This document shows positions 838 through 21,710 of a stretch of 34,679 nucleotides of DNA, piece after piece. Each line of letters opens with the position of its first letter. The stretch's first letter is position 1. Location: positions 1 to 34,679 of the forward strand of contig JABCSY010000040.1 in assembly GCA_018238625.1 (NCBI GenBank), given 5' to 3'. Below the pieces are notes generated by a model, which saw nothing but the letters and a program-made list of their open reading frames with translations, was not told the DNA's origin and made no database searches. The position numbers and the translations under genes were made by a program. The DNA comes from Promethearchaeota archaeon. Its GTDB lineage: Archaea > Asgardarchaeota > Lokiarchaeia > Sigyniarchaeales > SOKP01.

Positions 838-2335
838 CTTGATTCTCTTTCAAATTTATTGATTTACATTTTTTTCGTTTAATTCCACCAATTTTTTCCA
901 CTAGAAATTGGCCGGGCTTTACATCCTTTAAACTGTTAGATTCGATTAATCCTGCTTTAACTATATCGTTATATAGTTTATCTGCATCTTTCGATCTCGT
1001 TATTACAGAAGACCATCCATCTTGCGACCCAATCGATCCTACAGAAATGTCGGCGTAATCTGACGTTAGATCTTCACAAAAATGACAATTATCGCGCGCG
1101 TATTTTTGCACTTCTTTAAGAGGTACATCCATTTGCTCTCCAGATTTCAAGTTTATAATAAATTTACCGCCTCCAATATTCATTTTGGTTAGTTCGTTTA
1201 TGTCCTTGTTAAACTGTTCTTTAGCTAAATTAATTATTCCATCGTAAGGAAATGATTCCATGCAAAAAAGCCCGATTTTGTACTTGATATTATTAAAAAA
1301 GGGTAACCCACTTGGAAACATAGTCCCCTTTTCTATAGCTTTCATCATGCAAGGAACTCCTACGAAAGCTATCTTCTCGTATTTCTTACATTGATCTATG
1401 ATGGTTAAAGAAGGCGAATTTGCATATTTGGTTCCACCCGTTTTATATAAATCTTTCACATTCTCTACTATTATAGGCTCTGGTCTCCACAATTCCTCAG
1501 AGTGCTGCACAGCTACAATTGCATCGACAAGATTATTATCTAAAAGATATTCCAAGATAGAAGTTACAATACCACCATCTTGACGGACTTTCTTAATACC
1601 ATCTTTAGTCGTTGATGCTGAGTAAGCGTTAATGTAAGCTCCCGTTTTGTCAGACCATCTTAAAGATTTGTCTAACTTTTTAATGCTTTCGTTAGCTTGG
1701 TCTATCGAAAAGGAACGAGGACAGACCGAAAAACACAACCCACATTTCATGCAAACGTCTTCGTCAATTTCAAGAGTGTCTGCCGTCACTACGATGGCGT
1801 TTACAGGACAGATCGCAGAGCACCATCCACATTGACAACAGACTCCCGCGTTAAAAACTATAGAAACAGGTTCAAAATAATACTCAATAAAATCGTCTGG
1901 TAAATCTCTTACTTGGTACCTGTAAAAGAATTCCTTTACTTCAACTTCTTTTTCTTCTCCCTTGATTTTTTTTATAACCGTTTTAGTCTTGATTTCCACG
2001 TGTTCCTGAACGTATCCTTGTTCTTTTAGATAAATAACATCTCTAATAACATTTTCAGGAGGGAAGTCTTTGACGATCTTTACTATTTCTTCTAAAAATA
2101 ACGGCTTATTACCCGTTAATTCTTTTAGTACTAATTTCCGCTCAGTTTCTGCATCTATCATAGCATCAAGGATTTCGTAAAATTCGTTTTCAGAAAATTT
2201 ACCTACTTTCAATATCTCTTCTTTTGCTTCAAAAAAAGCTCTTACTTGAAAGTTTCCCGAAGCTTGATAAGTAGCTTCCATTAAGTCTTTAGGAGAGATT
2301 CCCTTAAACAACTTGCTATTTACAACTTGAACCAT
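827..2335 (-). CDS. FrhB/FdhB-family protein with ~150-aa N-terminal helical/winged-helix-like extension and a 2x[4Fe-4S] ferredoxin
   Basis: Motifs CCQCGWCSAICP, CMKCGLCFSVCP, QDGGIVTS, GGTKY, VGVPCM, IGLFCMESF and CHFCEDLTSDYADISVGSIGS. Confidence 0.9.
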   Translation of the reverse strand: MVQVVNSKLFKGISPKDLMEATYQASGNFQVRAFFEAKEEILKVGKFSENEFYEILDAMIDAETERKLVLKELTGNKPLFLEEIVKIVKDFPPENVIRDVIYLKEQGYVQEHVEIKTKTVIKKIKGEEKEVEVKEFFYRYQVRDLPDDFIEYYFEPVSIVFNAGVCCQCGWCSAICPVNAIVVTADTLEIDEDVCMKCGLCFSVCPRSFSIDQANESIKKLDKSLRWSDKTGAYINAYSASTTKDGIKKVRQDGGIVTSILEYLLDNNLVDAIVAVQHSEELWRPEPIIVENVKDLYKTGGTKYANSPSLTIIDQCKKYEKIAFVGVPCMMKAIEKGTMFPSGLPFFNNIKYKIGLFCMESFPYDGIINLAKEQFNKDINELTKMNIGGGKFIINLKSGEQMDVPLKEVQKYARDNCHFCEDLTSDYADISVGSIGSQDGWSSVITRSKDADKLYNDIVKAGLIESNSLKDVKPGQFLVEKIGGIKRKKCKSINLKENQDEH

Positions 2336-2379
2336 ATTTCCTTCATTTACCTATTTATTTAATACAGATTTTAACAAAT

Positions 2380-2436
2380 TAAAATTTAATTAAACTCCCA
2401 CCTTCGCAGGGTAAGTCATCTTATAACTAAAATTTT
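2380..2436 (-). promoter_or_regulatory. Candidate SECIS element (AUGA...GA core) in the mvhD 3' intergenic region
   Basis: Minus-strand RNA AAAAUUUUAGUUAUAAG-AUGA-CUUACCCU-GCGA-AGGUGG-GA-GUUUAAUUAAAUUUU. It is a GC-rich hairpin in an AT-rich spacer with an AUGA/GA kink-turn-like core, directly 3' of genes carrying in-frame UGAs. Folded by eye; the upper stem is imperfect. Confidence 0.65.
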
Positions 2437-2447
2437 TTTTATAAGAT

Positions 2448-2906
2448 TCATTCTTCTACGGGAGTAGTTAGTGTTTTTTGTTTTATTTTTTTAATATCCA
2501 TGCTTTTTAACGGATTGGGTCCAGATCTCTTTACCTTTTCGTACGCATCCTCGACGCTTTTAACAAACTTTTCTGCTTCAGCACTACTTAGCCAATACAT
2601 ATTAACTCTTCGACTACCGAATCCTCGCTTTTCCAAAATTCTATTAGCAAAATCAACATGTCTTTGGGCGTTAAAATTTCCTTCTTTAAACTGACATTCA
2701 TTTGGGCGTCATCCAACAACCATAACTCCGTCAGCTCCAGCTTTTATGCTATATAAGATGTGCTTTACATCGACTCTTCCAGTGCATCTTACTTTAATAA
2801 TCTTTACTGATGCTGTATATTTCATACGAGAGACCCCTGCTAAATCTGCAGCGCTGTATCCTCACTTTAAACAAGCAAATATTACAATTTTATAATTATT
2901 CTCCAT
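2448..2906 (-). CDS. mvhD: MvhD/VhuD [2Fe-2S] hydrogenase iron-sulfur subunit, selenoprotein with 2 Sec (152 aa)
   Basis: ATG at 2906, 5 nt after the hdrA stop and preceded by GAGGT. Translation MENNYKIVIFACLK-U-GYSAADLAGVSRMKY...VRCTGRVD...GADGVMVVG-U-RPNECQFKEGN...WLSSAEAEKF. UGA at 2864-2862 (U15) and 2711-2709 (U66), at conserved Cys positions of MvhD. Confidence 0.93.
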
Positions 2907-2911
2907 TCTGT

Positions 2912-4852
2912 TTAACCTCTTTCTAAAATTCCATCAATTTCAGTAAATAGTTGATAATCTCGATAATATCTAATGTCTATTGCTTGAGTGGGACAACATG
3001 TAACGCAAATCCCGCACCCATCGCAATTTATCTCGTCTACAACAGCACCTTCGTCGCCAACAACCGTAATTGCGTTTTTTGGGCATGCTTTTTCGCACCT
3101 TTTACACGAAATACAGAGCTCGTTATTAACTTCAGCGGTTATTAGTTCAATATCTATTTTTCCAGGGGCGGTTAATTCAGCTACTTTACTTGCAGCTGCA
3201 CTTGCTTGAGAAACCGAATACGCAATATTTTTTGGTCCTTGAGCAAACCCAGCTATAAAAATTCCCTTAGTATTAGTCTCTACTGGCATCAATCCAAAGT
3301 GAGCTTCTGTTAAAAATCCGTTTGTATCGACATCTAAGTTTAATACTTTAGCTATTTGCTCTGTACCTTTTGATGGTAATGCCGCTGTAGATAAAACGAC
3401 TAAATCCGCGCTAATCTTAATGATTTCGTCAGTTAAAGACGAATAAACTCGAACATTTACGTTTTTAGTCTTAGGATCTTCAGTAATTTCGCCAACCTTT
3501 CCCCGGATCATCCTAATATCAGAATCTTTAGCTCGTTGATAATATTCTTCGAATCCTTTTTCGTTCGTTCTTATGTCTATGTAACAAATGGTAATGTTCG
3601 CGTCCGGAAACTCTTCTTTAAGCAACTTTCCGTTTTTCAACGATAACATACAACAAACGCCACTACAATAAGGTCTTTCCGTGTTACGACTCCCCACGCA
3701 TTGAATAAACACAATTTCTTTAGGTTTTTTGACGTCCGAAATTCTATGGACATGACCTTCTAATGGACCATTCGGTGCTAAGATTCTTTCGAGTTGGGCT
3801 TGTTGAATCACATTTTCGAACTTTCCGTACCCGTATTCTCCAAATGGTTCGTAAATATCCCATCCAGTTGCGATTATTATCGTTCCTACATTAAACATAA
3901 CTTCTTCGGGTACTTGACTGAAATCAATGGCATCTAACTCGCAAGCATCCACACAACTAAAACATTCAACGCATACATCTCTATTAACGTCGTACAAGAA
4001 AGGTACTGCCTGTCCAAACGCTATATCAATTGCTTTTCTCACCCCTAAGTTTTCGTCAAAATAATTCGAAGTATATACCGGACACACTTCAGAACAGGCA
4101 CCACAACCATTACAATCGTTATTTACGTAACGCGGCTTCTTCTCAACGGTGATTTTATAATTTCCGACATATCCTTCAACCTCTTTCACTTCGCTATAGC
4201 TTAGAATCTCGATATTTTCGTGGCGATTGACTTCAAGCATTTTGGGTCCACAGATTCAAATTGAACAGTCGTCGGTTGGGAAGGTTCTATCTAACTGAGA
4301 CATCCTTCCTCCGATTGTGGTATTTTTCTCGACTAAATAAACTTTTATCCCTCCATTCGCTAGGTCTAATGCGGCGTTCATCCCAGCTATTCCTCCGCCA
4401 ACCACTAAGGTTGCTTTTTCAACGGGAACTGTTCTTATAGGGATGGCCTCCAAACATTTTGCTCTATTGATTCCTCCATTAACCAAGATTTTTGCTTTTT
4501 CTAAAGCTTCTTCGTTATCTTCAGTACACCAAGCACAATGTTCTCTTACATTAACCATTTGAAAAAAGTAAGGATTCGCAGCGGTCTTAGCGAGTGATGC
4601 CCTGTAAATTGGTTCGTGTGTCCTAGGCGTTCAAGCAGAAGCTACAATACAATTTAAGTTTTTTTCTTCTATATCTTTGACTATCTCGTTTTGACCGCTT
4701 TCTGTTCATAGAAAGGCATGAGTTTTAGAAATTACAACATCATCAATACCTTTAGCAAATTCTACTAACTCGTCGCAATCAACTTTACTACGTATGTTAA
4801 TTCCTCACTGGCATGAATAGTATCCAATCCGATGATTTTCAGATTTTTCCAT
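2912..4852 (-). CDS. hdrA: Heterodisulfide reductase subunit A (FAD, Fe-S), selenoprotein with 4 Sec (646 aa)
   Basis: One frame from ATG 4852 to TAA 2912 joins the two ORF-track fragments. UGA at 4807-4805 (YSCQ-U16-GINI), 4708-4706 (FL-U49-TESGQ), 4633-4631 (ASA-U74-TPRTHE) and 4258-4256 (TFPTDDCSI-U199-ICGPKM). Also GGGIAG FAD motif, IQCVGSR, YCSGVCC and two ferredoxin domains. Confidence 0.95.
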
Positions 4853-4863
4853 TTTTTTTCTTA

Positions 4864-4872
4864 CTCCACCTC
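4864..4872 (-). promoter_or_regulatory. Shine-Dalgarno-like sequence of hdrA
   Basis: GAGGTGGAG ends 11 nt before ATG 4852, supporting this upstream start. Confidence 0.6.
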
Positions 4873-4922
4873 AAGTTTTACAATTTTGATTTTCTATTTA
4901 ATTGTCAATTAATTTTCGATAC

Positions 4923-4942
4923 ATTAGATCGAAAGATCTAAT
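4923..4942. promoter_or_regulatory. Perfect inverted repeat upstream of hdrA (candidate operator or hairpin)
   Basis: ATTAGATC-GAAA-GATCTAAT, about 70 bp upstream of the hdrA start. Confidence 0.4.
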
Positions 4943-5110
4943 TTATTTTATTATAGATTATTTTAATTTTTATATTATTAATAATTATATTTTTTTCTAT
5001 TTAACGGTAAAAGTTAATTTAATAACATAATCAGTAAAATAAGAATCAAATCGAAAATATTCGCAAAAAGGATAATTGAAGAGAAGTTTATATAAAGAGA
5101 AGTAATAAAT

Positions 5111-6256
5111 TTAGCTTAGCGATTGAGTTTGATTTATGGTCGTTAAATCGCTTCTTTTTTCGACTAAATTAGAAGTTAATTCTTCCAACGTCTCGATTTT
5201 TCTTTCTAAAAGTTCGATCCTATCAAAATTAGTTGAAAGAATTTTTCTAATTAATTTATTTTCCGAAACTGTAAATGCTCCAGCTTTCTTCTTAAAAAAT
5301 CTAAACCTTTTGTAAAATTCCGATTTTTTCAAGAGATTCAATCGAATTATCCATTTAACCATTGGCACAAAACGTCTTTTAGTTCGTACTTTTTTTTCAA
5401 CTTCTTTATAATAATCGTTAAGCGTGTGTCGTTGGTAATGTAATAGGTTTTCGGACTTCTGAGTGTCGCAAAAGCCACAATGGAAATCTTTTACAGCAAA
5501 TCCTTCTTTAGGTAAAAAATTTGGACCTAGCCCAAAAATTTCCATCATATCATTAAGGTACTCTCTATAAGTTATTCTACATCTATCTCCGCCAGCTATA
5601 TTGAACGTATCACCCCATACTCCATCGCTCTCAACAGCGTTAGCGAGCGCTAGTCCAACATCTTTAGTATCGCAAATTTCGATTGAAGTATCTAAAGGCA
5701 TATGAAACATCAATGGGTCCATATTTAACTTGTTTACAGAAGTAATATATGTCAATCTAAATATTGCAAAATCTACACCCGAATCCCTTATCAATTTTTC
5801 CGCATTAATTTTAGTTAAAGCATAATAATCTCCGCGACTTGGAGCGAGGATGTCAGTAGTTTTAATCATTGGGTTATCTAATCTATCTCCGTAAACCGCA
5901 ATTGAACTAGTAAAAATTAATTTTGGTTTTTTGACTTGATTTTTTATCGCATTGAGCAAATTTTTAGTTCCTCCAACATTTACGGCGTCAGCTAAGCTTG
6001 TGTTATCATCAGCTAAAGGTGGAATAATGGCTGCTAAATGAATAATAACATCTTGTTCTTTAACTGCGCTTTCCACGTCTTCTTTACTTCTAAGGTCGCC
6101 CCAAACAATATCAATCTTGTTTTTGAATTTTTTAGCTACTTTTCTATTTTTCCGGTTATATACTTCAAATACTCTAACATTTAAACCTTTATACAGTAAT
6201 TCTTTTAATGTACTTAACCCAACATTTCCAAACGCACCTGTTAGTAAAATATTCAT
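5111..6256 (-). CDS. NAD(P)-dependent epimerase/dehydratase (extended SDR)
   Basis: TGAFGNVG Rossmann motif, HLAA, FTSSIAVYG and catalytic YALTK (YxxxK). Confidence 0.88.
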   Translation of the reverse strand: MNILLTGAFGNVGLSTLKELLYKGLNVRVFEVYNRKNRKVAKKFKNKIDIVWGDLRSKEDVESAVKEQDVIIHLAAIIPPLADDNTSLADAVNVGGTKNLLNAIKNQVKKPKLIFTSSIAVYGDRLDNPMIKTTDILAPSRGDYYALTKINAEKLIRDSGVDFAIFRLTYITSVNKLNMDPLMFHMPLDTSIEICDTKDVGLALANAVESDGVWGDTFNIAGGDRCRITYREYLNDMMEIFGLGPNFLPKEGFAVKDFHCGFCDTQKSENLLHYQRHTLNDYYKEVEKKVRTKRRFVPMVKWIIRLNLLKKSEFYKRFRFFKKKAGAFTVSENKLIRKILSTNFDRIELLERKIETLEELTSNLVEKRSDLTTINQTQSLS

Positions 6257-8951: not shown

Positions 8952-10451
8952 ATGACTGAGAATCAAACGGACAAAGAACAACCGGCTACTCAATATGATT
9001 ATTCCTTCGATTATATTCAAAAGAAGCTTGAAGGGAAAAAGGATTCTTTCGGTATGTTAATGAAAGAAATTGTGCGGGCAGGAATATGCACGGAATGCGG
9101 GACATGTGCCGCAGTTTGCCCAGTTCTCGAGTGGGACCATTTGGCAGGACAGCCTAAGTTAATAGGGAAATGTACGGGGTGTGGTATCTGCTATAACCAA
9201 TGTCCCCGAACTATAACAGACCCTATCCAACTAATGGGAGAGTTCAAAACAGGATATGTAGCGAATACAGATATCCCAGAAGTTATTGGTGGCCAAGATG
9301 GAGGAACTGTGACTTCTTTACTAATTTATTTATTTGAGGAACATTTAATTGATGCTGCAATCGTTGCAATGAGAGATCCTAGTAATCCGTGGCATCCAGT
9401 TTCTCAGATAATTACCAGTAAAGAGGACGCTATAAAAGCTTCCGGATCGATTTACTGTCATACTCAAACTGTCGAAGCGTTAATGGATGCTATACGACAA
9501 GATTATAGATCAATAGCTTTTGTTGGTACGCCTTGTAATATCGATGCCGTAGATAAGATGATGAGTTCTCCGTCGGGAATGTTAAAATATTTTATGCGCG
9601 CTCACATTCTTAAAATTGGTTTGTTTTGTATGGATTCTTTTTCTCCAGAAGCACTTTATCAATTTTTCGAAAAAGATGGGATTGACCTTTCAAAAGTAGT
9701 TAAAATGGATATTAGTAAAGGAAAATTTCACTTATATAACGACGCTAAGGGAGAACCAATAAAATCATATACCATCAAACAATTACATAAGTTTAAATCT
9801 CCAAGTTGTAATTTTTGCACAGATCTGACCGCCGAAAATGCGGATATTTCTGTTGGCTCAGTAGGTAGTGGAGCAAACAAAAACACAGTATTTGCAAGAA
9901 CTGGAATTGGATCTGAGATTATGGAAGATGCTGCTAAAAAAGGATATCTTAAAATTGAACCTTATAACGCTATAAATTTGAACGCAGTATTGTTTCTGGC
10001 TAAACTTAAAAAAGTTTCTCAATACAACATTCAAAAACGTAAGGTCTTCATCGTTAGAGATCCTATGGAGAAAGAGGGCCCGAAAATTGAGACTAAGCCT
10101 GAAGAAGAGAAACCTACTACGAAAACGCTAGGGACTAGAAAATTCTTGCGCGTATCTAAAGATGTAAATGAAAAAGAAAAGATATTAAAAATATCGTTAA
10201 CTAACAGTATAGGTTATCTTTTAGAAGACATCAAAATCAGAATCGCTATAGTCGAAGAATTATTTGAAAAGAAACCTTGGATAACTAATATTAGAGAATT
10301 ATTCCCTTATGAAACTATTGAGATAGGATATCCCTTAGAAACTGAAAACAACGAAATAATTTATGGTAATGTGTTAGTAGAGGCCTCAACTGAGGCGTTT
10401 GGAAAAGTTTTTTCAAAAACTTTTAAATTGACACCTAAAGAAAAAAAATAA
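8952..10451 (+). CDS. FrhB/FdhB-family protein with ferredoxin domain and ~130-aa C-terminal extension
   Basis: Motifs CTECGTCAAVCP, CTGCGICYNQCP, GQDGGTVTS, VGTPCN, IGLFCMDSF and CNFCTDLTAENADISVGSVGS. Confidence 0.9.
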   Translation: MTENQTDKEQPATQYDYSFDYIQKKLEGKKDSFGMLMKEIVRAGICTECGTCAAVCPVLEWDHLAGQPKLIGKCTGCGICYNQCPRTITDPIQLMGEFKTGYVANTDIPEVIGGQDGGTVTSLLIYLFEEHLIDAAIVAMRDPSNPWHPVSQIITSKEDAIKASGSIYCHTQTVEALMDAIRQDYRSIAFVGTPCNIDAVDKMMSSPSGMLKYFMRAHILKIGLFCMDSFSPEALYQFFEKDGIDLSKVVKMDISKGKFHLYNDAKGEPIKSYTIKQLHKFKSPSCNFCTDLTAENADISVGSVGSGANKNTVFARTGIGSEIMEDAAKKGYLKIEPYNAINLNAVLFLAKLKKVSQYNIQKRKVFIVRDPMEKEGPKIETKPEEEKPTTKTLGTRKFLRVSKDVNEKEKILKISLTNSIGYLLEDIKIRIAIVEELFEKKPWITNIRELFPYETIEIGYPLETENNEIIYGNVLVEASTEAFGKVFSKTFKLTPKEKK

Positions 10452-12984
10452 CATTAGAATACCTCTCTCTTGCCCGTTTTCTCCTCAAGCCTTCTGGAAT
10501 CTGATTATTTTCAAGATCTAATATTTGTAGATTAAAGAGGGATTCTAATCCCTTGATCTCGGTAATCCGATTATTCATAAGATGTAACTTTTGTAGGTTA
10601 GCGAGGGATTCTAAACCCTTGATCTCGGTAATCTTATTATAATTAAGATTTAATTCTTGTAGATTAGCGAGGGATTCCAAGCCCTTGATCTCGGTAATCA
10701 GATTACTATAAATATCTAATCTTTGTAGATTAAAGAGGGATTCCAAACCCTTGATCTCGGTAATCTGATTTTTATTAAGACGTAACCATTTTAGATTAGC
10801 GAGGGATTCTAAACCCTCGATCTCGGTAATCTGATTATTTTTAAAACATAAATATTGTAGATTAGTGAGGGATTCCAAGCCCTTGATCTTGGTAATCTGA
10901 TTATTTTCAAGATGTAAATATTGTAGATTAGCGAGGGATTCCAAGCCCTTGATCTTGGTAATCTGATTACTATCAAGAAGTAACCTTTGTAGATTAGCGA
11001 GGGATTCCAAGCCCTTGATCTCGGTAATCTGATTACAATCAAGACGTAAAATTTGTAGATTAGCGAGGGATTCCAAGCCCTCGATCTCGGTAATCTGATT
11101 AACTTCAAGATATAGCGCTTCTAAATTAGTCAAGGTTTCCAAGCCCTTGATCTTGGTAATCTGATTACCAGTAAGAGATAGCTCTTCTAAATTAGTCAAG
11201 GTTTCCAAGCCCTTGATCTTGGTAATCGGATTACCACCAAGATATAATGTTTGTAGATTAGCGAGGGATTCCAAACCCTTGATCTTGGTAATCGGATTAC
11301 CACCAAGATATAATGTTTGTAGATTAGCGAGGGATTCCAAACCCTTGATCTCGGTAATCTGATTACTAAAAAGACTTAAATCTTGTAGATTAGTCAAGGT
11401 TTCCAAACCCTTGATCTCGGTAATCTGATTACGAAAAAGACTTAAATATTGTAGATTAGTCAAGGTTTCCAAACCCTTGATCTCGGTAATCTTGTTCCGA
11501 TCAAGAAGTAACTTTTGCAGATTTGCAAGGGATTTCAAGCCCTTGATCTTGGTAATCTGATTATCCTGAAGATCTAATGTTTGTAGATTAGCGAGGGATT
11601 CCAAGCCCTTAACATCGGAAATCTTTTTAATATTCATACTTGAAAGGCCCAAAAATCCATCTTTCTTAACCTCAATCTTTTTTCCGTAAACCCTAACAAA
11701 TTGCGAATCTTTTTTTTTTTTTTTTTTTTTTCTAATGTTAGTATTTAATATAGAATTTTTTGTCTCTGGAGGTATATCATCCAAATCCTCATCTAATAGT
11801 AATTTCTTAGCAGTTTCTACATTATCTAACCTAGCTTCATCAGATAAATTACTTAAATTTAGAATTCCAACTTCTTCTTCAGCCACAATTCTCTCTTTTG
11901 GGTATTCCTTTTCTCTCTTCTTAACTTGAGTGATTATTTCATCTAAGATTTTGGTTTTATAATATCTGTCAGTTATCTCAACACCACTCTCTTTTAATAT
12001 CGTAAGTTGAGCTTTTGCTTCCTCACTCAGCAATGTTTGATTAATAATCAGGTTCTTTAAGGATGATAAGTTTGAAAGAGATTTCGGTAGCATTTTTATA
12101 GGATTCTCGCTTAAATTTAGTATTTCAAGATTTTTTAAATCGCCAATTATTTCGGGGATCTCTTCTATCTGGTTTTTGCTTAAGTCTAATTCCAATAAAT
12201 TTTTGAGATTACCAATAAATTTAGGGATTTGTTTAATCATTTTTTCCGAAAATAAGGAAGGACTTATCTTAAGAATTTTAAGAGCTTTCAGATTACCTAT
12301 AAACTCTGGGACTTGCGATAATGCAATATACTCATAATCCAGCCATAATAAGGAAGTAAAATGTTCTATTACTTTGGGGATATATATAGATTTATAGAAT
12401 TTCATAGTAAGACCAATTACTCTAGTATTTTCTACAAAAGCTTTAAGTGAAGCATACATAAATTTCAATCTATCATTCATCCCAACAATTACAAATTGAG
12501 CGGGATCTACGCTTTCCATCTCTTCAAGGAAATTAACTTCACTTTGAAGCAAAGCTCTTCCCCTAAAATTCACAATCTTATCGGGATCCTTACTCTTATT
12601 TACGATTTTTGTGTGAGAGAGGAAAGGCTCAAATTCATAAAAATTACTAAAAGCAGCATTTTCTGGCCATATAATTAATGAATGTCCCTCTGAAATACGA
12701 TGAGTAATAAAATTAAATATTTCGTCTTCATGAATATCCGTTTCTGGACCAGTATCGTCAAGAAAATAATCTTCATGATGTTTTAGTTCAAAATAGGATA
12801 ATTGGATTTCGTTCTCTTCCTTAGTTAAGTAAACCTTTCTTATTTGAGAGGGATGAGTGATTCCTACATTCGCTAATTCTTCTTTTAATATAGAGATAGA
12901 AGGATGTGGGGGTGAGTACCCACAATACCGACAGAATTTATATCCAATATCCCATTTCTCATTACATGATTCACATTTTTTCAT
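10435..12984 (-). CDS. Leucine-rich repeat protein: N-terminal zinc ribbon, central LRR block and C-terminal SDS22-like LRR array
   Basis: CESC...CRYC at the N-terminus, IPEIIGDLKNLEILNLSENPI-type repeats, then ~17 22-aa repeats LQxLxLxxNQITEIKGLESLAN. Confidence 0.92.
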   Translation of the reverse strand: MKKCESCNEKWDIGYKFCRYCGYSPPHPSISILKEELANVGITHPSQIRKVYLTKEENEIQLSYFELKHHEDYFLDDTGPETDIHEDEIFNFITHRISEGHSLIIWPENAAFSNFYEFEPFLSHTKIVNKSKDPDKIVNFRGRALLQSEVNFLEEMESVDPAQFVIVGMNDRLKFMYASLKAFVENTRVIGLTMKFYKSIYIPKVIEHFTSLLWLDYEYIALSQVPEFIGNLKALKILKISPSLFSEKMIKQIPKFIGNLKNLLELDLSKNQIEEIPEIIGDLKNLEILNLSENPIKMLPKSLSNLSSLKNLIINQTLLSEEAKAQLTILKESGVEITDRYYKTKILDEIITQVKKREKEYPKERIVAEEEVGILNLSNLSDEARLDNVETAKKLLLDEDLDDIPPETKNSILNTNIRKKKKKKKDSQFVRVYGKKIEVKKDGFLGLSSMNIKKISDVKGLESLANLQTLDLQDNQITKIKGLKSLANLQKLLLDRNKITEIKGLETLTNLQYLSLFRNQITEIKGLETLTNLQDLSLFSNQITEIKGLESLANLQTLYLGGNPITKIKGLESLANLQTLYLGGNPITKIKGLETLTNLEELSLTGNQITKIKGLETLTNLEALYLEVNQITEIEGLESLANLQILRLDCNQITEIKGLESLANLQRLLLDSNQITKIKGLESLANLQYLHLENNQITKIKGLESLTNLQYLCFKNNQITEIEGLESLANLKWLRLNKNQITEIKGLESLFNLQRLDIYSNLITEIKGLESLANLQELNLNYNKITEIKGLESLANLQKLHLMNNRITEIKGLESLFNLQILDLENNQIPEGLRRKRARERYSNVIFFL
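10498..11610 (-). repeat. Coding tandem repeat, ~17 x 66 bp
   Basis: Recurrent + strand unit tgtagattagcgagggattccaagcccttgatctcggtaatctgatt at a 66-bp period. Confidence 0.95.
11710..11731 (-). repeat. 22-nt homopolymer (A22 on the coding strand) inside the LRR gene
   Basis: T run from 11710 to 11731, encoding R-KKKKKKK in frame. Confidence 0.9.
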
Positions 12985-13119: not shown

Positions 13120-15000
13120 TTATTTTATTTTATCTTTTTTAAACCTTGGTTTTTTACAAGAACATTTATTATTTTTATCGATTAAATTATTGCAATATGG
13201 AATAAAGTTTGTAGCATCCAAATCCATTACTGAACTTATAATTTTTGGAGATATATTCTCATACTTCTCTTCTCGATATTCTTTCTTTTTTTTTAAATAT
13301 CTTTCCCATGATTTTTCGAAATCCTGTTTTATTATTTTCAAACTCTTTTTGAAATTTGGATGTAAATATTTTTCAACTAATTTGTTAAGTTTCTTAAAAT
13401 TTATTTTCTTCCAATCACCATATTTAGGAAGATACTCATAAATATTATGAACCCAATCGAAATCACATAAACGAGACTTAGCTAATTCGATAGAATCTTG
13501 ATTCCAATTTAAGAATTGCAAATCATTTAAAATTTCAGAATCGTTATTTTTTGTACTATTACATAAAATTCTCAGAAACTTTTTTATTATATTTTTTCCT
13601 TCTTCTGCATGTACAGATGCGTGAGTGTGATAAGTGTAAGAGACATCTTTACCGCGATCAACTTTTCTTTTTTTGGGAAGGAACAAAAAATTAAATATTT
13701 CATCGTTTTCCTTTACCATATCAGAATGATGAAAGATAGCTGTATTTTCAGTACTAATATAATTCAAATCTCGAAGATGTGAAACTAAATCATAATCATC
13801 AAAGGAGAAACCGAGTGTTTGAAGGAATCGTAAAATTCTTACTTCAATAGATTTATAATTATTACCATATTTTTCTTTTACTTCCATATTTCGTCTTCTT
13901 GCTTTCTCAGATGTTTTCCTAATCTCCTCATTATAATAATCTAAATAATCTTTATAACCTACTAATGCTACCTCAGACTTATCATTATCTTTAATAGATT
14001 GAATGAACGGAAATATATTATTTTCTAAGGTTTGGGATTTAAAATAATAATTAATTTCTGATAAATTGTCTAACGCAACGTTTACTTTACCTTCAAACAT
14101 TCCTGTAATTTTCAAAAGTTTTCTTAAATTAAGATTTGAACATTTTAGCAGAATATTAACAAGGTTTACTTCCTCTTTGTTTTTATTTTTTTTAAGAAAA
14201 CTCAGAATTTCTTCATCTAATATTTTTCTATTTTTTAATCTTCGTTTTAAATACTTTTCAGCAATTACCACTCTATTTTCATATAAAGAAAGTAATCTTT
14301 GCGTACTTCCTATTCCTAATAAAGCTCTTAAATTATTCAAACTTGCATAAGTCACTTGATTACCAGAACGCACTTTATATGTTAATTCAAATTCATCTTT
14401 AAAGAAATGAATTAATATAGCTCCAATATATTTAGGATGATATAAATTATAATCTCCTTTATAAATAATATCATTTATATCAAATTTACTAATTTCAAAT
14501 TTATTAAAATACTCGTAAAGCTCTTTTGCTCTATTTTTTAGTTCAATTTTAAATTCTTCAGATAAACTTATATTAAAGTTTATGGAAAGTTTGTTAAGCA
14601 AATCTTCAAAATATTGAAATATTTTATTTTTAAATTCATTTATATTAAGTGAAATCCTTTTACAATAATTATTATAATATTTACTAAATGTATCATCATT
14701 TATAGAAAGTAATTTTGAATATTTAGTTTTATTCAAGATGAGTGTATCTAAATCTTTATAAAACATTAAATGCATGAATAGGCTCACGGCAGAAGCATAA
14801 ATAGGATTCTTTAATCCTAAGTATGTGTAAAGTTTATTCTTCTTAAAAAAATTAATAATTTTCTCACTATCTATCATTCCTATGATTTTAAAATCAGCCG
14901 AATTCATTAAACATTTGATGTGTATATTCAAATTAGTTTTAAATTTCTCATCAAATGTTAAATTTTCTATAAAAGAATCAAAATTATTATTACTATCCAT
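13120..15000 (-). CDS. Hypothetical protein with possible cyclin/TFIIB-like helical repeats and an HNH-like motif
   Basis: 626-aa ORF, very AT-rich. IFHHSDMVKENDEIFNFLFL...HTHASVH resembles HNH. KNPIYASAVSLF and YHPKYIGAILIHF resemble TFIIB/cyclin box helices. Confidence 0.55.
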   Translation of the reverse strand: MDSNNNFDSFIENLTFDEKFKTNLNIHIKCLMNSADFKIIGMIDSEKIINFFKKNKLYTYLGLKNPIYASAVSLFMHLMFYKDLDTLILNKTKYSKLLSINDDTFSKYYNNYCKRISLNINEFKNKIFQYFEDLLNKLSINFNISLSEEFKIELKNRAKELYEYFNKFEISKFDINDIIYKGDYNLYHPKYIGAILIHFFKDEFELTYKVRSGNQVTYASLNNLRALLGIGSTQRLLSLYENRVVIAEKYLKRRLKNRKILDEEILSFLKKNKNKEEVNLVNILLKCSNLNLRKLLKITGMFEGKVNVALDNLSEINYYFKSQTLENNIFPFIQSIKDNDKSEVALVGYKDYLDYYNEEIRKTSEKARRRNMEVKEKYGNNYKSIEVRILRFLQTLGFSFDDYDLVSHLRDLNYISTENTAIFHHSDMVKENDEIFNFLFLPKKRKVDRGKDVSYTYHTHASVHAEEGKNIIKKFLRILCNSTKNNDSEILNDLQFLNWNQDSIELAKSRLCDFDWVHNIYEYLPKYGDWKKINFKKLNKLVEKYLHPNFKKSLKIIKQDFEKSWERYLKKKKEYREEKYENISPKIISSVMDLDATNFIPYCNNLIDKNNKCSCKKPRFKKDKIK

Positions 15001-15194: not shown

Positions 15195-16115
15195 GTGAAA
15201 TGTACTATTAAAATAAGTTTAGTTGGCTTAGGCGGTTGCGGTAAGACAAGTCTTTACTCCGTAGCGTTTGCTGAAAAAACGCCCGAAGACACAAAAAGAC
15301 TTAGCCCGACAATCCTTTATGAAACTCGAAGACATCCGTTTCTGGGCTTACAGGTTGGGATTTTCGACTTTGGGGGTCAAGAGCAGTACCGTAAGGAGTA
15401 TATGGAAAAGCCCGAAGTATTTCGAGGAACGGATATTTTGATTTGTATCGTTGATTTACACGACCCAAATTCCTTCGATCAAGCAAAAGAATATTTTGAG
15501 GGATTGTTGGATATACATCGTAAAAACAACGAGAAGCCGAAAATCTTTTTATTCCTACATAAATACGATACTGAAGATTACCAGAAAGAATTACTTGATA
15601 CTAACGTAAAGAACGCTAAGGAAGTCTTCTTGGATATATTTAAAGATTACGATTTTGATTATATGTTGACGAGCATTTATCAACAAGACGAATTAGCCAA
15701 AGTTTTTCGGGATATATTAATTTCGTCATATAAAGATTTGAAAAAATCCGTAGAAAAAGCTGAAAGCCAATTAGAAGAAATTAAAGCAAAAATAATTATT
15801 TCTGATGTTTCTGGAAATGTCATAGTTCATAACGTTCAAGGTGTAAGCAGTGGTTTAACGCTTCGTGGAGATCTAAGAGACTTCATCGACGCGTGTAATA
15901 CGGTAAGAGAAAACATCTTTATGTCTGATTCTGCTCAATTTAAAGGGTTGAACGAGGACGGAAAAGAAATCGAGCTCCACATCTTTAAATACATTATTTC
16001 GGTACTCGTAATGAAAACAGGAGAGTTGGATAGAGACTCTCAAGATAAATTAAATGTATTGTTAAAAGATATGTCTCTCTTTGCAGATTTGATCATCTCT
16101 GCGCATTCGGATTGA
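15195..16115 (+). CDS. Small GTPase, Rag/Gtr-like, with C-terminal roadblock/longin-like domain
   Basis: G1 GLGGCGKTS, G2 SPT, G3 DFGGQ, G4 HKYD, G5 TSIY. C-terminal IIISDVSGNVIVH strand pattern. Confidence 0.85.
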   Translation: MKCTIKISLVGLGGCGKTSLYSVAFAEKTPEDTKRLSPTILYETRRHPFLGLQVGIFDFGGQEQYRKEYMEKPEVFRGTDILICIVDLHDPNSFDQAKEYFEGLLDIHRKNNEKPKIFLFLHKYDTEDYQKELLDTNVKNAKEVFLDIFKDYDFDYMLTSIYQQDELAKVFRDILISSYKDLKKSVEKAESQLEEIKAKIIISDVSGNVIVHNVQGVSSGLTLRGDLRDFIDACNTVRENIFMSDSAQFKGLNEDGKEIELHIFKYIISVLVMKTGELDRDSQDKLNVLLKDMSLFADLIISAHSD

Positions 16116-16230: not shown

Positions 16231-17367
16231 ATGTCCGAAAAAGTAGAAGATAGAATAAAAGAATTAGAAGAACGATTGGCTTCCACTAAAGTCAACAAGG
16301 CTACGCAAAAAAGCATAAATTTCATTAAAGCACAACTAGCCAAACTCCGCGAAGATGTGATTCGCATTGCTAGTTCTAAAAAGGGTGGCGGTGGTGGCTT
16401 CGGCATTAAAAGAACAGGAGATGCCCAAGTAGCTTTCATTGGATTTCCCTCAGTTGGGAAATCTTCTTTATTAAATTTACTAACTGAAGGTAATACTCAG
16501 TCTAAAGTTGCATCATATGATTTTACTACTGTTACAGCAATACCTGGTATGATGGATATCGAAGAAGCGAAGATTCAACTTATTGATTTACCTGGAATAA
16601 TTTTGGGTGCTGCTGCTGGTAAAGGGCGAGGAAAGGAAGTATTAGCAGTAGTACGCTCGGCAGAGTTAGTTTTAATTATAATATGTTTTCGTTCTGATGG
16701 AACGATTAATCTTTCTGATTTGAAAACTATTAGAATGGAGTTAAATAACGCAGGAATCCGGTTAAATACAAAACCGCCTAGAATTGTAATTAAAGAGCGC
16801 ACACGTGGAGGGATTCATTTTACTTACAAAGGTCAACAACTTATGGATGCTGATGAAGTTAAAGCTCTGATGAATGAGCTTAAAGTCCGGAACGCAGGTG
16901 TTTACTTCTCTGAACCAGATATTACGCCCGATCAATTAATAGATTTCGTGTTTGGAAATCGTATCTACACAAGAGAGTTTGTAGTAATTAATAAATCAGA
17001 TTTAATGGAAACTCCAATTTCCCCTGAAGAAATTACAGAAGCAATTGGTCACGAACATTGGGTTATGATCTCAGCTAAAAATAAAGAAAATATCACTACG
17101 CTTAAGCATAATATCTTCACGGAGCTGAATTTAATACGAGTGTTTTTAAAACCTCCAAGACAGGAAGCTGATATGGATGAGCCAATAATTCTCCATCACG
17201 GCGATACGCTCGAGAAACTCTGTCTTAAAATTCACAAACGATTCGTAAGCGATTATCGCTACTCGCTAGTATGGGGTAAATCGGCAAAACACCCAGGTCA
17301 AAAGTTTGATAACCTAGATCATGTAATTGAAGATGGCGACATAATTTCGATTTATTTGAAGCGATAA
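16231..17367 (+). CDS. drg: DRG/OBG-family GTPase with TGS domain
   Basis: KVNKATQ, GFPSVGKSSLL, YDFTT, DLPGII.GAA.GKGRGKEVL, NKSD and a C-terminal TGS domain (VWGKSAKHPGQ). Confidence 0.93.
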   Translation: MSEKVEDRIKELEERLASTKVNKATQKSINFIKAQLAKLREDVIRIASSKKGGGGGFGIKRTGDAQVAFIGFPSVGKSSLLNLLTEGNTQSKVASYDFTTVTAIPGMMDIEEAKIQLIDLPGIILGAAAGKGRGKEVLAVVRSAELVLIIICFRSDGTINLSDLKTIRMELNNAGIRLNTKPPRIVIKERTRGGIHFTYKGQQLMDADEVKALMNELKVRNAGVYFSEPDITPDQLIDFVFGNRIYTREFVVINKSDLMETPISPEEITEAIGHEHWVMISAKNKENITTLKHNIFTELNLIRVFLKPPRQEADMDEPIILHHGDTLEKLCLKIHKRFVSDYRYSLVWGKSAKHPGQKFDNLDHVIEDGDIISIYLKR

Positions 17368-17372
17368 AAAAC

Positions 17373-18005
17373 TTATCCATAAAATAAGATATATAACTCG
17401 TTATAAAGCTCCGCAAGTTTGGAGATTCTATATGGATCGTTTTCTTGTAATGAATGGAGGAGATAAGAAGTTAAACCTTGAGGATTATTAATCCAATCAA
17501 CAAATCCTTCCACCTCCGCCTTGAGATATGGATCGATTGTAGGTTGTACCATACTACTACTTTTTGCGATAATTTCGTTCTCAACGGAAACATCTACTTC
17601 AGTCTCAACAAATTGTGACTTTGATCCTTTTTTCATCATAGCTGCTGCTCTCGTAACTGCGGGATACGCCATATGTATCCACCCCTTTGCTTTAGGTTTG
17701 ATATGAGCTATGATATATAGGTCGCTACCAAATATCGATGAGCCAACTAAGTGTCCTTTTTTCTTTCTATTAGTTGCTATAAATCTTTCGGGTGACATTT
17801 GAAGTACTGAATATCTGATACCGTTCATATTCACAAATTGGGCGCTGCCACTACCCCAACTAGCTAAGACAGTCTTAATATCTTTCGATACGCTCCAATT
17901 ACTAGTGGAATAAATGACCTTCCCTTTATTGCCAACAACTACTACTTCATTTGCGTCAGAATAATGTTTTTGCAAATTTTTAACAATAGACTTATAATTT
18001 ACCAT
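17373..18005 (-). CDS. Asgard profilin-like protein with ~85-aa C-terminal extension
   Basis: GKVIYSTSNWSV and GIRYSVLQMSPERFIATNRKKKGHLV resemble, from memory, the Loki profilin motifs (TxNW; GIKY...ER..TN..KGH). Confidence 0.7.
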   Translation of the reverse strand: MVNYKSIVKNLQKHYSDANEVVVVGNKGKVIYSTSNWSVSKDIKTVLASWGSGSAQFVNMNGIRYSVLQMSPERFIATNRKKKGHLVGSSIFGSDLYIIAHIKPKAKGWIHMAYPAVTRAAAMMKKGSKSQFVETEVDVSVENEIIAKSSSMVQPTIDPYLKAEVEGFVDWINNPQGLTSYLLHSLQENDPYRISKLAELYNELYILFYG

Positions 18006-18028: not shown

Positions 18029-19399
18029 TTATCTTTTTTCTATTAGGTTAATCCATTCATTGATTTTTTCTATTAATTCGAATTTTTCTTTGGGGCTCAA
18101 CCCTAAATTAGGTTCTGTGTGTTGATAGATATTGGCAAATTTACCCATATCCCATAAAATATTTGAATGTAAGATCATGCTTTTGATGTAATCTCGTGCA
18201 GTTTCAAGCGTCTTCCCTATAGATATAACGTCGTAATCTTTATTTACGATATCCTTTACGGTTAAAAGAATATCTAATGTGTTACTAGTTGGCATGTTAG
18301 GGAGTGGTTTTAACTCAACAATAGGTCTCTTCATTGTCCTAATTTCAAATTGGTCTTGCTCGTTCCTGTATTCCTTGAAGGGTAATGCAATTTTATCAAC
18401 TTCGTTAGGTTGATAAATCTTAGTAGCTACTTGTACGACCGATTTTTCCAATTCGTCTTTTGTTTTTCTTTTAAATTGTTCTGGCCAATCGACGAATGAA
18501 TTAATTCGGGGTTCAGCAGAGATGAAAATTGATTCTTTTAGTCTTTTTTTATTATCTTTATCACTTTTTTGAAAGTTAGTAGATGCTATTTCTGATCTCA
18601 ACAAAGCAGAAGCATTTCTGATTATTGAGAACAAATACATAGGGTCGTATTCCATCATAGAATATACCTTTTTCAATTTTAAAGTCGATTCTTGAATGTA
18701 TTGTAACTCTTGCTGTGAAAAGTAGCTTTTTAAGTGGTTTTTAGCACCAATTTTGATTCCGTCTAATCCAGCTGTAGGGCTCGTATAATTTGCTTTCAAT
18801 TCGTGATCCATTTCGGAAGAAATTAAGATTTGATTGTAGAAATCCAAGTGTGTGCTTAAGAGCATGGGACCAGTTATATCTATTTGGAAAGATTGGGGTT
18901 TTTTCAAAGTTTCCATCAATTCTAAAATGATATCTTTATACGGAATGAATAGATTTCTCATAAGCGTTCCTTGAATGAACGTACGCTTAGTTTCAGATTT
19001 ATAAGACAAATCTATTGGCAACTTAAATAGGTTCTCACTAACGATTACATCGCGATCGTTTTCTAGCGTAATATTTTTTGACGTTGCTAAATGATCGTAC
19101 ACAAAATCTGACAGGATTAAACCCGTTAATTGCCTATTATCGGTAATATATCTTCCACTTTGAAGCTCAAATTTAGTATAATAATATCCTATGCCAAAAA
19201 GATAATATGAAGTTCCTCTTTCCGTTGAGACGGCATGTTCAGATCCCCCAAAAAATATAACTAGATCTTGGGTTATTTTTGATACTTTATGGTTAGCGTA
19301 TTTCCCTAAAGTTGGATACCCGATTAGATTTCCCCAACTTGGTATTATAAAAAAGGTATAATTATTCAACAGATTACCTTCTGTATTATTGTTTGACAT
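18029..19399 (-). CDS. Hypothetical protein
   Basis: 456-aa open frame with no motif recognised, 23 bp upstream of the profilin-like gene on the same strand. Confidence 0.8.
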   Translation of the reverse strand: MSNNNTEGNLLNNYTFFIIPSWGNLIGYPTLGKYANHKVSKITQDLVIFFGGSEHAVSTERGTSYYLFGIGYYYTKFELQSGRYITDNRQLTGLILSDFVYDHLATSKNITLENDRDVIVSENLFKLPIDLSYKSETKRTFIQGTLMRNLFIPYKDIILELMETLKKPQSFQIDITGPMLLSTHLDFYNQILISSEMDHELKANYTSPTAGLDGIKIGAKNHLKSYFSQQELQYIQESTLKLKKVYSMMEYDPMYLFSIIRNASALLRSEIASTNFQKSDKDNKKRLKESIFISAEPRINSFVDWPEQFKRKTKDELEKSVVQVATKIYQPNEVDKIALPFKEYRNEQDQFEIRTMKRPIVELKPLPNMPTSNTLDILLTVKDIVNKDYDVISIGKTLETARDYIKSMILHSNILWDMGKFANIYQHTEPNLGLSPKEKFELIEKINEWINLIEKR

Positions 19400-20479: not shown

Positions 20480-20621
20480 AAATTCTCGAATCTAAAATTT
20501 AAACTTATCTCCCAATTTTAATTAGGTATTAAATGTTCTCAAAGCAATTAATGGACTCCTATAATGATATTAAATGACAAAAAATATATTAAGTAACGAA
20601 ATCAAAAAAGGATATATAAAA

Positions 20622-21368
20622 ATGTCAAATATGGATGTTAGAAAAGATTTCTACGAATTTGGGAGAAATATGCAAATTGTAGCAATTTGTACCGTTTTAA
20701 GTATAGCAACTGGTGTGACGGGCTTAATAGCGTTAATCTTTATATTTATTGCTTTGGGAAATATCAAAAACGCAAATCTTAAATTAAATAACGAATATTT
20801 AAAGCAATTTCGTTCGAAATATATTAGGGCTTTCATTTTAAGAATATGTGGTACGATCGTGTTGATAGTAGGAGTTATAAATATTTTATTTGGTGTATAT
20901 ATGCCGATGGATATCACTTCTTATTGGATAACCGTTTCTATAAGCATTATTGTTATTACATCTGGTTTAGTATTTATGATAACAAGTGTATTTGCTGAAA
21001 TAAAAGCATGGAAAAATTTGAAGCGATTCTTTGAAGAAAATAGGAGTATGTTTCCAGATAACCTTTATTTTGAATTAATTGAGGGGTGCGATAAGTTAAA
21101 AACGGCTACCTTATTGAACGCGTTATTTTTTTTAATAATCACTATAATAATTGGATTTATATATCAAATTATAGGATATTTTAAATTAGCAAAATTGAAC
21201 AACTTGATGTTATATGATGTTCCAAAAACATCGCCGACACAAGTGATCTTACCGGAGTCTCGATCAAGTGGCATAAACGAAGTAGCAAGCAATTTTTGCC
21301 CAAATTGTGGAAGCAAATTATCCGGATTAGGAAAATTCTGTCCCTTATGCGGTTCGGATATTAGGTAA
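20622..21368 (+). CDS. Membrane protein with C-terminal zinc ribbon; paralog of 24240..24965
   Basis: Multiple hydrophobic helices and CPNCG...CPLCG. Start at ATG 20622 chosen by alignment to the paralog (MSNMDVRKDFYEFG vs MVKVDVSIEFSEFG). Confidence 0.85.
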   Translation: MSNMDVRKDFYEFGRNMQIVAICTVLSIATGVTGLIALIFIFIALGNIKNANLKLNNEYLKQFRSKYIRAFILRICGTIVLIVGVINILFGVYMPMDITSYWITVSISIIVITSGLVFMITSVFAEIKAWKNLKRFFEENRSMFPDNLYFELIEGCDKLKTATLLNALFFLIITIIIGFIYQIIGYFKLAKLNNLMLYDVPKTSPTQVILPESRSSGINEVASNFCPNCGSKLSGLGKFCPLCGSDIR

Positions 21369-21602: not shown

Positions 21603-21710
21603 TTTTTTACTTACTTTAAATAAAGATTTATAAACAAAAAATAAGGCTATACATATAAAAACCCAATGAAATCTTTTTTGGGTATAATTCTTTAGTGAAA
21701 GGTTAAAAAA

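Follow-up and report, generated by a model that had tools for sequence, protein, structure and literature searches.

One 3' SECIS element probably shared by the hdrA and mvhD selenoprotein genes of a Promethearchaeota archaeon

Introduction

Can six in-frame UGA codons, spread over two neighbouring genes, be read as selenocysteine (Sec) with the help of a single selenocysteine insertion sequence (SECIS)? This question is raised by the hdrA-mvhD locus of a Promethearchaeota archaeon (assembly GCA_018238625.1). The locus lies in a 34,679-nt stretch of DNA, called the window below, which spans positions 1-34,679 of the forward strand of contig JABCSY010000040.1. A first-pass annotation, made from the letters of the window, had proposed that one SECIS-like hairpin after mvhD is common to both cistrons and acts over about 2.4 kb. 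Comparison with related operons supports such a shared element, at a corrected position. The window very probably holds the usual hdrA-mvhD selenoprotein operon of a Lokiarchaeota-type Asgard archaeon, with a single SECIS of the kind known as lokiSECIS.

Mariotti et al. (2016; PMC4989117) described a single SECIS after VhuD that is common to HdrA and to up to six UGAs over about 2 kb of one polycistronic mRNA. Huang et al. (2024; PMC11227280) surveyed more than 400 Asgard genomes and reported that hdrA and frhD are always neighbours and have the same element in common. Because the shared SECIS has been published in these two papers, the finding itself is known and the window is one more instance of it. 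The shared SECIS would be the longest-range, multi-site and cross-cistron Sec recoding proposed in any organism, a point made in 2016, and it is found in the archaeal lineage closest to eukaryotes, with a eukaryote-like core. The window adds a further clean example and a corrected location of the element, together with a family picture of 77 operons that includes a covarying lower helix, a small third helix and up to seven UGAs.

In-frame UGA codons of hdrA and mvhD

The two genes are separated by 5 nt (hdrA ends at 2912, mvhD begins at 2906), as the first-pass annotation had stated, and its count of six UGA codons was also correct: codons 16, 49, 74 and 199 of hdrA, and codons 15 and 66 of mvhD. 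These UGAs lie 258 to 2356 nt upstream of the SECIS element, and the larger figure, measured from the first hdrA UGA, agrees with the earlier estimate. The hdrA product carries HdrA-type FAD and ferredoxin domains (Pfam).

Structural homologues were used to see which residues stand opposite the UGAs. In HdrA, U16, U49 and U74 are opposite Cys in PDB 9sfi_A (E 4e-198), and U199 is opposite residue X ('...ptddcamXilapkm') of this methanogen HdrA. For MvhD, PDB 9sfi_K has X at the places of both U15 and U66, and 5odc_D has Cys there. In-frame UGA is thereby found where HdrA and VhuD homologues have Cys or Sec.

The same picture was obtained from a codon alignment of 76 full-length hdrA genes (75 relatives and the window). 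All 76 genes have TGA at codons 16, 74 and 199, and codon 49 is TGA in 50 of them, TGT in 18 and TGC in 8. Where TGA occurs, rarely, at codons 297, 300 and 613, the column otherwise holds Cys codons only. Across 76 relatives, the UGAs of the operon alternate solely with TGT and TGC. TGA terminates 2 of the 23 other long open reading frames (ORFs) of the window, and none of those ORFs requires an internal TGA. Judged by these alignments, the in-frame UGAs of hdrA and mvhD are interpreted as Sec codons.

Position and anatomy of the SECIS element

The first-pass annotation had placed the SECIS core at AUGA 2419-2416 and GA 2397-2396, on either side of a GCGA-capped stem. This placement was wrong, and the true core lies one hairpin upstream, within the 72-nt element listed in Table 1. 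Helix I forms the base of this element and leads to a core of the kink-turn (K-turn) type, above which helix II carries an A-rich apical loop. The loop, AAAAAAUUUUAG, has AAAAAA at its start and AG at its end. Helix III follows the 3' GA and precedes the strand with which helix I closes, so that a three-way junction would result. The UGA within the core AUGA doubles as the mvhD stop, and the in-frame UAA that follows three codons later, formed by the conserved helix II sequence, is possibly a back-up stop for mvhD. In most relatives in which the mvhD stop is the UGA of AUGA, a UAA likewise stands in frame 9 or 12 nt past the TGA, inside the helix II sequence.

Table 1. Features of the hdrA-mvhD operon, its SECIS element and other reading frames in the window.
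Feature	Position	Strand	Remark
hdrA (heterodisulfide reductase subunit A, 646 codons)	4852-2912	-	translation with TGA=U uninterrupted
hdrA in-frame UGA, codon 16	4807-4805	-	
hdrA in-frame UGA, codon 49	4708-4706	-	
hdrA in-frame UGA, codon 74	4633-4631	-	
hdrA in-frame UGA, codon 199	4258-4256	-	
hdrA stop TAA	2914-2912	-	
mvhD/vhuD (FlpD family)	2906-2448	-	Pfam FlpD at 1e-43
mvhD in-frame UGA, codon 15	2864-2862	-	
mvhD in-frame UGA, codon 66	2711-2709	-	
mvhD stop codon UGA	2450-2448	-	
Whole SECIS element (helix I, K-turn-type core, helix II with A-rich loop, small helix III)	2465-2394 (72 nt)	-	
Helix I, 5' strand ACUCCC, within last mvhD codons	2465-2460	-	pairs with 2399-2394
5' core AUGA	2451-2448	-	invariant, 77/77
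Helix II	2447-2439 (AUCUUAUAA) with 2426-2418 (UUAUAAGAU)	-	9 Watson-Crick pairs
In-frame UAA three codons past the UGA stop	2441-2439	-	formed by conserved helix II sequence
Apical loop, 12 nt, AAAAAAUUUUAG	2438-2427	-	
3' core GA	2417-2416	-	
Helix III, ACC/GGU around loop CUGCGAA	about 2412-2400	-	C2409/A2403 mismatch; relatives paired there
Helix I, 3' strand GGGAGU	2399-2394	-	
FrhB/FdhB-like gene with ferredoxin domain	2335-827	-	Pfam FrhB_FdhB_C 4e-40, FrhB_FdhB_N 7e-21
Second FrhB/FdhB-like gene	837-1	-	Pfam
Long ORF without Pfam match	13120-15000	-	
Long ORF without Pfam match	17373-18005	-	
Long ORF without Pfam match	18029-19399	-	
Long ORF without Pfam match	20574-21368	+	
Long ORF without Pfam match	21711-22895	+	

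The stem of helix II was predicted in every ViennaRNA fold run. The whole element (2394-2465) folds at -16.0 kcal/mol with a z-score of -2.65, and 2 of 200 shuffled sequences were as good; for the core interval 2414-2453 the z-score is -2.54, with 6 of 200 shuffles as good. Folding of the region thus gave a stable structure at the true element, and the interval 2380-2436, in which the first-pass annotation had seen the hairpin, folded at the level of chance (-9.8 kcal/mol, z -1.03, 29 of 200 shuffles at least as good). Of the true element, this interval takes in half of the stem (the 3' one), the GA, helix III and the 3' strand of helix I.

The letters AUGA and GA do occur at 2419-2416 and 2397-2396. 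A short stem can be drawn between them (C2415-G2398, U2414-G2399, A2412-U2400, C2411-G2401 and C2410-G2402; -1.4 kcal/mol), and column pair 57:82 of the alignment is CG in 70/76 rows. That these motifs, the GCGA-capped stem and an AU-rich lower stem constitute the SECIS has nonetheless a negligible probability. Only 18 nt separate the two motifs, too short for the published 9-bp stem and 11-nt loop (Mariotti et al., 2016), and the model of Huang et al. (2024) has 7-15 bp and 8-20 nt. The two pairs specific to this core have an ensemble probability of 0.0 and compete with helix I, of which six of six pairs covary. The A-rich apical loop is missing from this arrangement, and its core letters vary over 77 rows, the column of U2418 being T52/A10/G8/C7 and that of A2396 G43/A33/T1. 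All of its parts belong to the true element: the AUGA of 2419-2416 is fully accounted for by the last two bases of helix II and the true 3' GA, the GCGA-capped stem is helix III, and GA 2397-2396 lies inside the 3' strand of helix I. For anyone building reporters, the corrected anatomy tells which 72 nt count, namely 2465-2394 and not 2436-2380, and which helices are worth mutating.

Mariotti et al. (2016; PMC4989117) defined lokiSECIS by an AUGA, a 9-bp stem, an 11-nt loop with A's first and (A)G last, and a following GA or AA, and reported it also after the unrelated selenoprotein genes PrxL and VhuU. The element in the window has the AUGA directly before the stem, the 9-bp stem, an A-first and AG-last loop, and the GA after the stem. 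It lies close to a selenoprotein gene end, after only the second gene of the HdrA-VhuD pair. Its loop is different, with 12 nt instead of 11; this is a 1-nt length variant within the 8-20 nt of the type I model of Huang et al. (2024; 7-15 bp stem), and the relative with 94% HdrA identity (L001) has 11.

Huang's general Asgard type I descriptor has two zero-mismatch sites in the window. One is the true element, and the other, 21666-21706(+), was rejected; it ends in AA and is without support from the covariance models. Used loosely, the same type I descriptor accepts 84 combinations of stem and loop across the window, most of which contain 2 mismatches. The plain pattern ATGA-N27-33-GA is uninformative alone, with 125 matches against 155 expected.

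Conservation of the element in related operons

Relatives were collected through one HdrA scan of species-representative genomes, in which 186 stretches matched; 150 were relatives, and the best 80 were kept. These 80 loci all come from Promethearchaeota or other Asgard-labelled metagenome-assembled genomes, and their HdrA identities to the window are 75-94%. mvhD directly follows hdrA in 77/80 loci, and the other three (L069, L075 and L077) stop at the contig edge. In one locus (L009) mvhD is cut after 42 residues, which leaves 76 loci with the 3' end of mvhD, or 77 operons including the window.

With a relaxed descriptor, an AUGA/9-bp stem/loop/GA element was found after mvhD in 76/76 loci, each with at least 8 of the 9 stem pairs. 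A descriptor demanding the first stem pair had missed the element in 30 loci and chosen an unrelated site in 5 more, and was relaxed afterwards; the first helix II pair is unpaired in 36/76 rows. Conservation after orthologous mvhD genes, on which the first-pass proposal depended, was therefore seen for the true element in all 77 operons. A plain MAFFT alignment shows invariance at the AUGA, at three A's of the loop (A2435-2433), at the loop-final G (G2427), at the A of the 3' GA and at a single later G; these positions are the hallmarks described in the literature. The 3' core dinucleotide is GA in 65 rows and AA in 12, with A2416 invariant (77 rows), and the base after it is C in at least 90% of rows. 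Among the 76 loci the apical loop measures 11 nt in 74, 12 nt in L053 and 10 nt in L036.

RNAalifold on the plain MAFFT alignment recovered helix II, with compensatory changes in 6 of 8 predicted pairs, and no other helix, because helices I and III are out of register in that alignment. To capture all three helices, a covariance model (R1) was built from 24 relatives of identical geometry, with the window excluded. R1 found the element of the window at 2391-2468(-) with 76.1 bits (E 1.7e-19). Over 741 kb, R1 gave 77 full-length matches (47.9-98 bits), exactly one per operon in 77/77 operons. All other matches scored at most 21.8 bits and were mostly the reverse complement of the same AT-rich stem.

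In the model-based alignment of 77 rows, 94.9% of the base-paired cells hold a pair, compared with 85.1% in shuffles and 44-58% when the partners are slid, and 0/500 shuffles reached any of the covariation measures. Compensatory changes were seen in 15/18 pairs overall, namely 6/6 in helix I, 8/9 in helix II and 1/3 in helix III. Helix I is paired in 96.2% of its cells and takes many forms in the family, such as ACCCCU/AGGGGU, AACACCU/AGGUGUU, UGCCUCUU/AGGAGGUA, CAUCCUCU/GGAGGAUG, AGCUCC/GGAGCU and others. By script it was located at the same place in 74/77 rows, and a shorter pairing was read by eye in L043, L054 and L059.

The stop codons and the UGA counts were also compared over the 77 operons. 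mvhD ends in TGA in 53, TAG in 12 and TAA in 12, and in 51 the stop is the UGA inside AUGA; about two thirds of operons hence have their mvhD stop codon within the core. Mariotti et al. (2016; PMC4989117) describe this arrangement for VhuU.1, which makes its occurrence in mvhD a difference from that account. hdrA ends in TAA in 63, in TAG in 14 and in TGA in none. The hdrA genes carry 3 in-frame UGAs in 26 operons, 4 in 45 and 5 in 4, and in two further loci (L045 and L058) hdrA is cut at the 5' end. With two UGAs in mvhD in 77/77, the total is 5 to 7 per operon.

Four relatives (L010, L061, L066 and L073) differ from published lokiSECIS pairs in having five hdrA and two mvhD UGAs, that is seven behind one SECIS, compared with 'up to six' in the 2016 paper. 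Their extra UGAs are at Cys columns 297, 300 or 613. One locus entered among the hdrA genes with three UGAs, L029, has four; a 13-codon insert with an in-frame TAG had ended the count early. This insertion in hdrA (L029:4001-5986; VLI*NDSCSQN) stands between the conserved MVNIR and VREHC; a small inserted element, damage to this gene copy or a mistake in the assembly could each account for it.

The family agrees with the published lokiSECIS pairs in that hdrA stands directly upstream of vhuD/mvhD with a very short gap, VhuD has two UGAs, and hdrA never ends in UGA while vhuD often does. The gap between the genes is usually 4-6 nt across the family. An 11-nt overlap is found in three loci (L027, L064 and L080), and one Loki pair is reported to overlap in a similar way, by 28 nt.

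Search for other recoding signals

A second model, R2, covered only the core and was run with filters off. The window is in the training set of R2, and so only the absence of other matches counts. Over the 34.7-kb window, R2 gave one match (62.3 bits), and the next (17.3 bits) was its own reverse complement; over the 80 loci (707 kb), it gave 76 matches, one per operon. At gathering scores, no Rfam family of any kind was found in the window; with the cut-off relaxed to E 10, the region 2200-5200 gave only three chance-level matches, none of them a SECIS family. The euryarchaeal GAA_A-type SECIS (GAA opposite an A bulge, GC-only upper stem) was sought with our own descriptor, which had 0 strict matches in 2300-5110(-). 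One loose match to it, 3803-3843, is at chance level (shuffled mean 1.1).

R1, R2, Rfam and the GAA_A descriptor therefore agree with the first-pass annotation that the region has a single SECIS-type element, and a separate one within or upstream of hdrA, which would have spoken against sharing, was found by none of the covariance models, Rfam or the GAA_A descriptor. With one R1 match per operon in 77/77, the comparison supports the proposal that one SECIS after mvhD would be common to both cistrons and act over about 2.4 kb.

The element after mvhD may also be needed yet insufficient for the distant UGAs of hdrA, with extra signals in hdrA (codon context, a conserved 5' stretch or a structure other than lokiSECIS) assisting. 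Indeed, the first 20 codons of hdrA, the first UGA among them, show much less synonymous variation than the gene as a whole, and codons 8-20 hardly vary. In addition, no experiment in the literature compared shows an archaeal SECIS acting over 2.4 kb. However, sliding RNAalifold in 60-nt windows, on 53 hdrA coding sequences thinned to below 88% identity, found no conserved local structure after any hdrA UGA or anywhere else in the coding sequence (no window below -0.74 kcal/mol), and no model match lies within hdrA. Synonymous variation is normal around codons 49, 74 and 199. At the 5' end, a Shine-Dalgarno-like GAGGUGGAG stands just upstream of the hdrA start, and reduced synonymous change at gene starts is common for reasons of translation initiation. 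The need for such helpers in hdrA is accordingly rated improbable, and a lokiSECIS acting on its own is preferred.

The start of hdrA deserves description for its own sake. Over codons 1-20 (4795-4852 (-)), synonymous variation is 0.19-0.34, compared with 0.489 (sd 0.049) on average over the gene. Hardly any nucleotide changes around codons 8-20, a stretch that keeps a conserved CGG Arg codon in a 33% GC genome. The conserved GAGGUGGAG occupies 4864-4872, 10-18 nt before the start. Either translation initiation or a signal that sets the context of the first UGA could be behind the low variation.

Helix III and the alternative fold

Two of the three helix III pairs are nearly invariant in the family (CG 76/76; CG 73/UG 3). 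The remaining pair covaries (UA38, UG10, AU8, CG5, GU2, other 13). Relatives show the pattern CC-N/N-GG around a loop with a near-invariant GC. Helix III was compared with an alternative, model B, in which 5' GUAG pairs with CUGC and extends the lower helix. Helix III is the more stable of the two in 71/77 sequences, the window itself not among them, and model B is the more stable in 5/77.

Several points weigh against a single three-helix SECIS shared by both genes. The alignment in which pairs were counted (A4) was fitted to the model, so that the pair counts lean towards it, and one inherited change counts many times because all 80 loci are related (75-94% HdrA identity). The case for helix III in particular is weak: two of its pairs are nearly invariant and hence uninformative, and the single covarying pair is unpaired in 13/76 rows. 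In the window helix III has a C/A mismatch, and the minimum-energy fold there pairs GUAG with CUGC as in model B, which is paired in 73.2% of the family cells. As to sharing, R1 and R2 were trained on hdrA-mvhD elements only, and a very different type of SECIS inside hdrA could escape them. Finally, the reporter used in Methanococcus maripaludis (PMC9622424) covered distances of at most 679 nt, and its gene was monocistronic and carried another type of SECIS. Helices I and II are convincing despite the fitted alignment and the related sequences, and model B is kept as a minor alternative to the putative helix III.

Instead of a plain hairpin, the hdrA-mvhD lokiSECIS could be a three-way, k-junction-like element whose lower helix is partly made of the last mvhD codons and whose K-turn AUGA contains the mvhD stop, such that ribosomes finishing mvhD dismantle it and it refolds behind them. 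This proposal is tentative, and as a whole it is rather less likely to be right than wrong; no part of it was seen in the literature compared. If it were true, the terminal UGA would be a true stop, the availability of the SECIS to ribosomes on hdrA would be tied to mvhD translation, and helix III with its conserved CC..GC..GG letters could dock the archaeal SECIS-binding factor. The lower helix and the third helix that together form a three-way junction are possibly the sole new detail of this analysis. Mariotti et al. (2016; PMC4989117) use none of the terms 'lower stem', 'helix' and 'internal loop' in their main text. In the text compared, Huang et al. (2024; PMC11227280) give lower-stem features for frhA and selD only. 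A full-text literature search found no paper linking SECIS or lokiSECIS with a three-way junction or k-junction.

Comparison with other SECIS elements and RNA junctions

Compared with published descriptions of lokiSECIS, the covarying lower helix and the small third helix are features seen here. The element resembles eukaryotic SECIS of type I in the unpaired A's of the apical loop, the lower helix below an internal loop, and the location 3' of the coding region with action at a distance on several UGAs. It is different in its upper stem of only 9 bp, in serving two cistrons, in overlapping a stop codon and in the small hairpin on the 3' side of the 'internal loop'. Furthermore, it stays below every Rfam SECIS model, SECIS_1 included, even at E up to 10. 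In the literature compared, Asgard archaea are not known to have an SBP2.

A closer likeness in gene context is found in the vhuD SECIS of Methanococcales and Methanopyrus. According to Mariotti et al. (2016; PMC4989117), it follows the same gene and has a main stem above a short extra (lower) one, with an invariant AUGA opposite GAC/AAC where the two meet. The lower helix and the C after the 3' GA (at least 90% of rows) are the corresponding features here. In contrast, the present element is without the GAA_A bulge (0 strict matches) and the GC-rich stems, and the hdrA of those methanogens is reported to have a single Sec and its own SECIS (PMC4989117).

The k-junction of the thiamine pyrophosphate (TPP) riboswitch (Wang et al., 2014; PMC4005666) is similar in helix order and topology only. 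In the present element, helix I lies 5' of the loop, G.A/A.G pairs lead into helix II, and helix III stands between the 3' GA and the return of helix I. Its linkers are much longer: the GA is preceded by 5-8 nt plus AU, and helix III by 4 nt (CUUA). The likeness is offered as our own analogy; Huang et al. (2024; PMC11227280), in the text compared, cite the k-junction paper for GA_AA pairs only.

Eukaryotic multi-Sec mRNAs such as that of SelP likewise have several UGAs recoded from 3' elements on one mRNA. SelP, however, has two SECIS on a monocistronic mRNA (PMC4989117), whereas one element and two reading frames are found here. In the M. maripaludis reporter (PMC9622424), an archaeal 3' SECIS acted without strict distance limits at 520-679 nt.

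Proposed mechanism and the downstream gene

We infer from the sequence comparison that Sec would be inserted at six sites through a single 3' element. The most likely mechanism, by analogy with known systems, would be as follows. hdrA and mvhD would be translated from one mRNA, and because both reading frames would be on it, one folded 3' element would stand in cis to all six UGAs. The K-turn-type core would recruit the archaeal Sec elongation factor with Sec-tRNASec, directly or via a K-turn-binding protein, and the recruited complex would decode all six upstream UGAs as Sec.

The seventh UGA, inside AUGA, would act as the mvhD stop. It would escape recoding because the ribosome at that point has already unwound the core and helix I, the 5' strand of which is the last codons of mvhD. 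Should read-through occur, the UAA three codons further in the same frame would end it. Mariotti et al. (2016; PMC4989117) gave a 'minimal distance' argument for such a non-recoded stop UGA. hdrA presumably ends in UAA because a UGA at its end would be read as Sec.

Two FrhB/FdhB-like genes (2335-827 and 837-1) come next after the element, in line with the frhB-like genes of the first-pass annotation. An FrhB-like gene starts 30-141 nt past helix I in 76/76 operons with flank, the window included (median 58.5 nt; 58 nt in the window); L044 was left out, its flank ending at the contig end. In the window, this gene is preceded by the purine-rich stretch GAAGGAAAU. T-runs within 15 nt past helix I were counted in the 77 operons, with at least 4 T in 42/77 and at least 5 T in 15/77, and a terminator after the element is therefore not consistently indicated.

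This setting allows another explanation, in which the structure mainly does other work, as a transcript 3'-end or stability hairpin, an mvhD-frhB processing site or a device for translational coupling, while the UGAs are read by another route. The constant position 30-141 nt ahead of a conserved gene, the runs of at least 4 T in 42/77 operons and the overlap of helix I with the end of the mvhD frame all fit such a role. Against it, the element bears the SECIS signature of invariant AUGA/GA, A-rich loop and loop-final G, and every operon that bears the element has 5-7 in-frame UGAs at Cys positions. Runs of at least 5 T are confined to 15/77, and TGA serves as a stop in other genes. Such a main role is very improbable, and the two functions are not mutually exclusive; Sec insertion through the shared lokiSECIS is the preferred reading.

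Gene neighbourhood in the window

A third FrhB/FdhB-like gene with a ferredoxin domain is located at 8952-10451 (+), 4 kb upstream of hdrA, and the other two stand in tandem directly past the SECIS. Upstream of hdrA, a 258-nt, very AT-rich spacer (4853-5110) precedes a divergent-looking epimerase-family gene (5111-6256 (-)). The spacer is likely the promoter region of the operon, and it holds no SECIS-type match. No tRNA gene, and hence no tRNA-Sec gene, was found in the window. Five long ORFs (210-626 residues; Table 1) are without a Pfam match at E 1e-5.

Several other genes are eukaryote-like. They encode a Gtr1/RagA-family small GTPase (15195-16115 (+); Pfam 7e-25), an MMR_HSR1/TGS GTPase (16231-17367 (+)) and an 849-residue leucine-rich-repeat protein (10435-12984 (-)). 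Such proteins are typical of Asgard genomes, in line with the taxonomic placement of the window.

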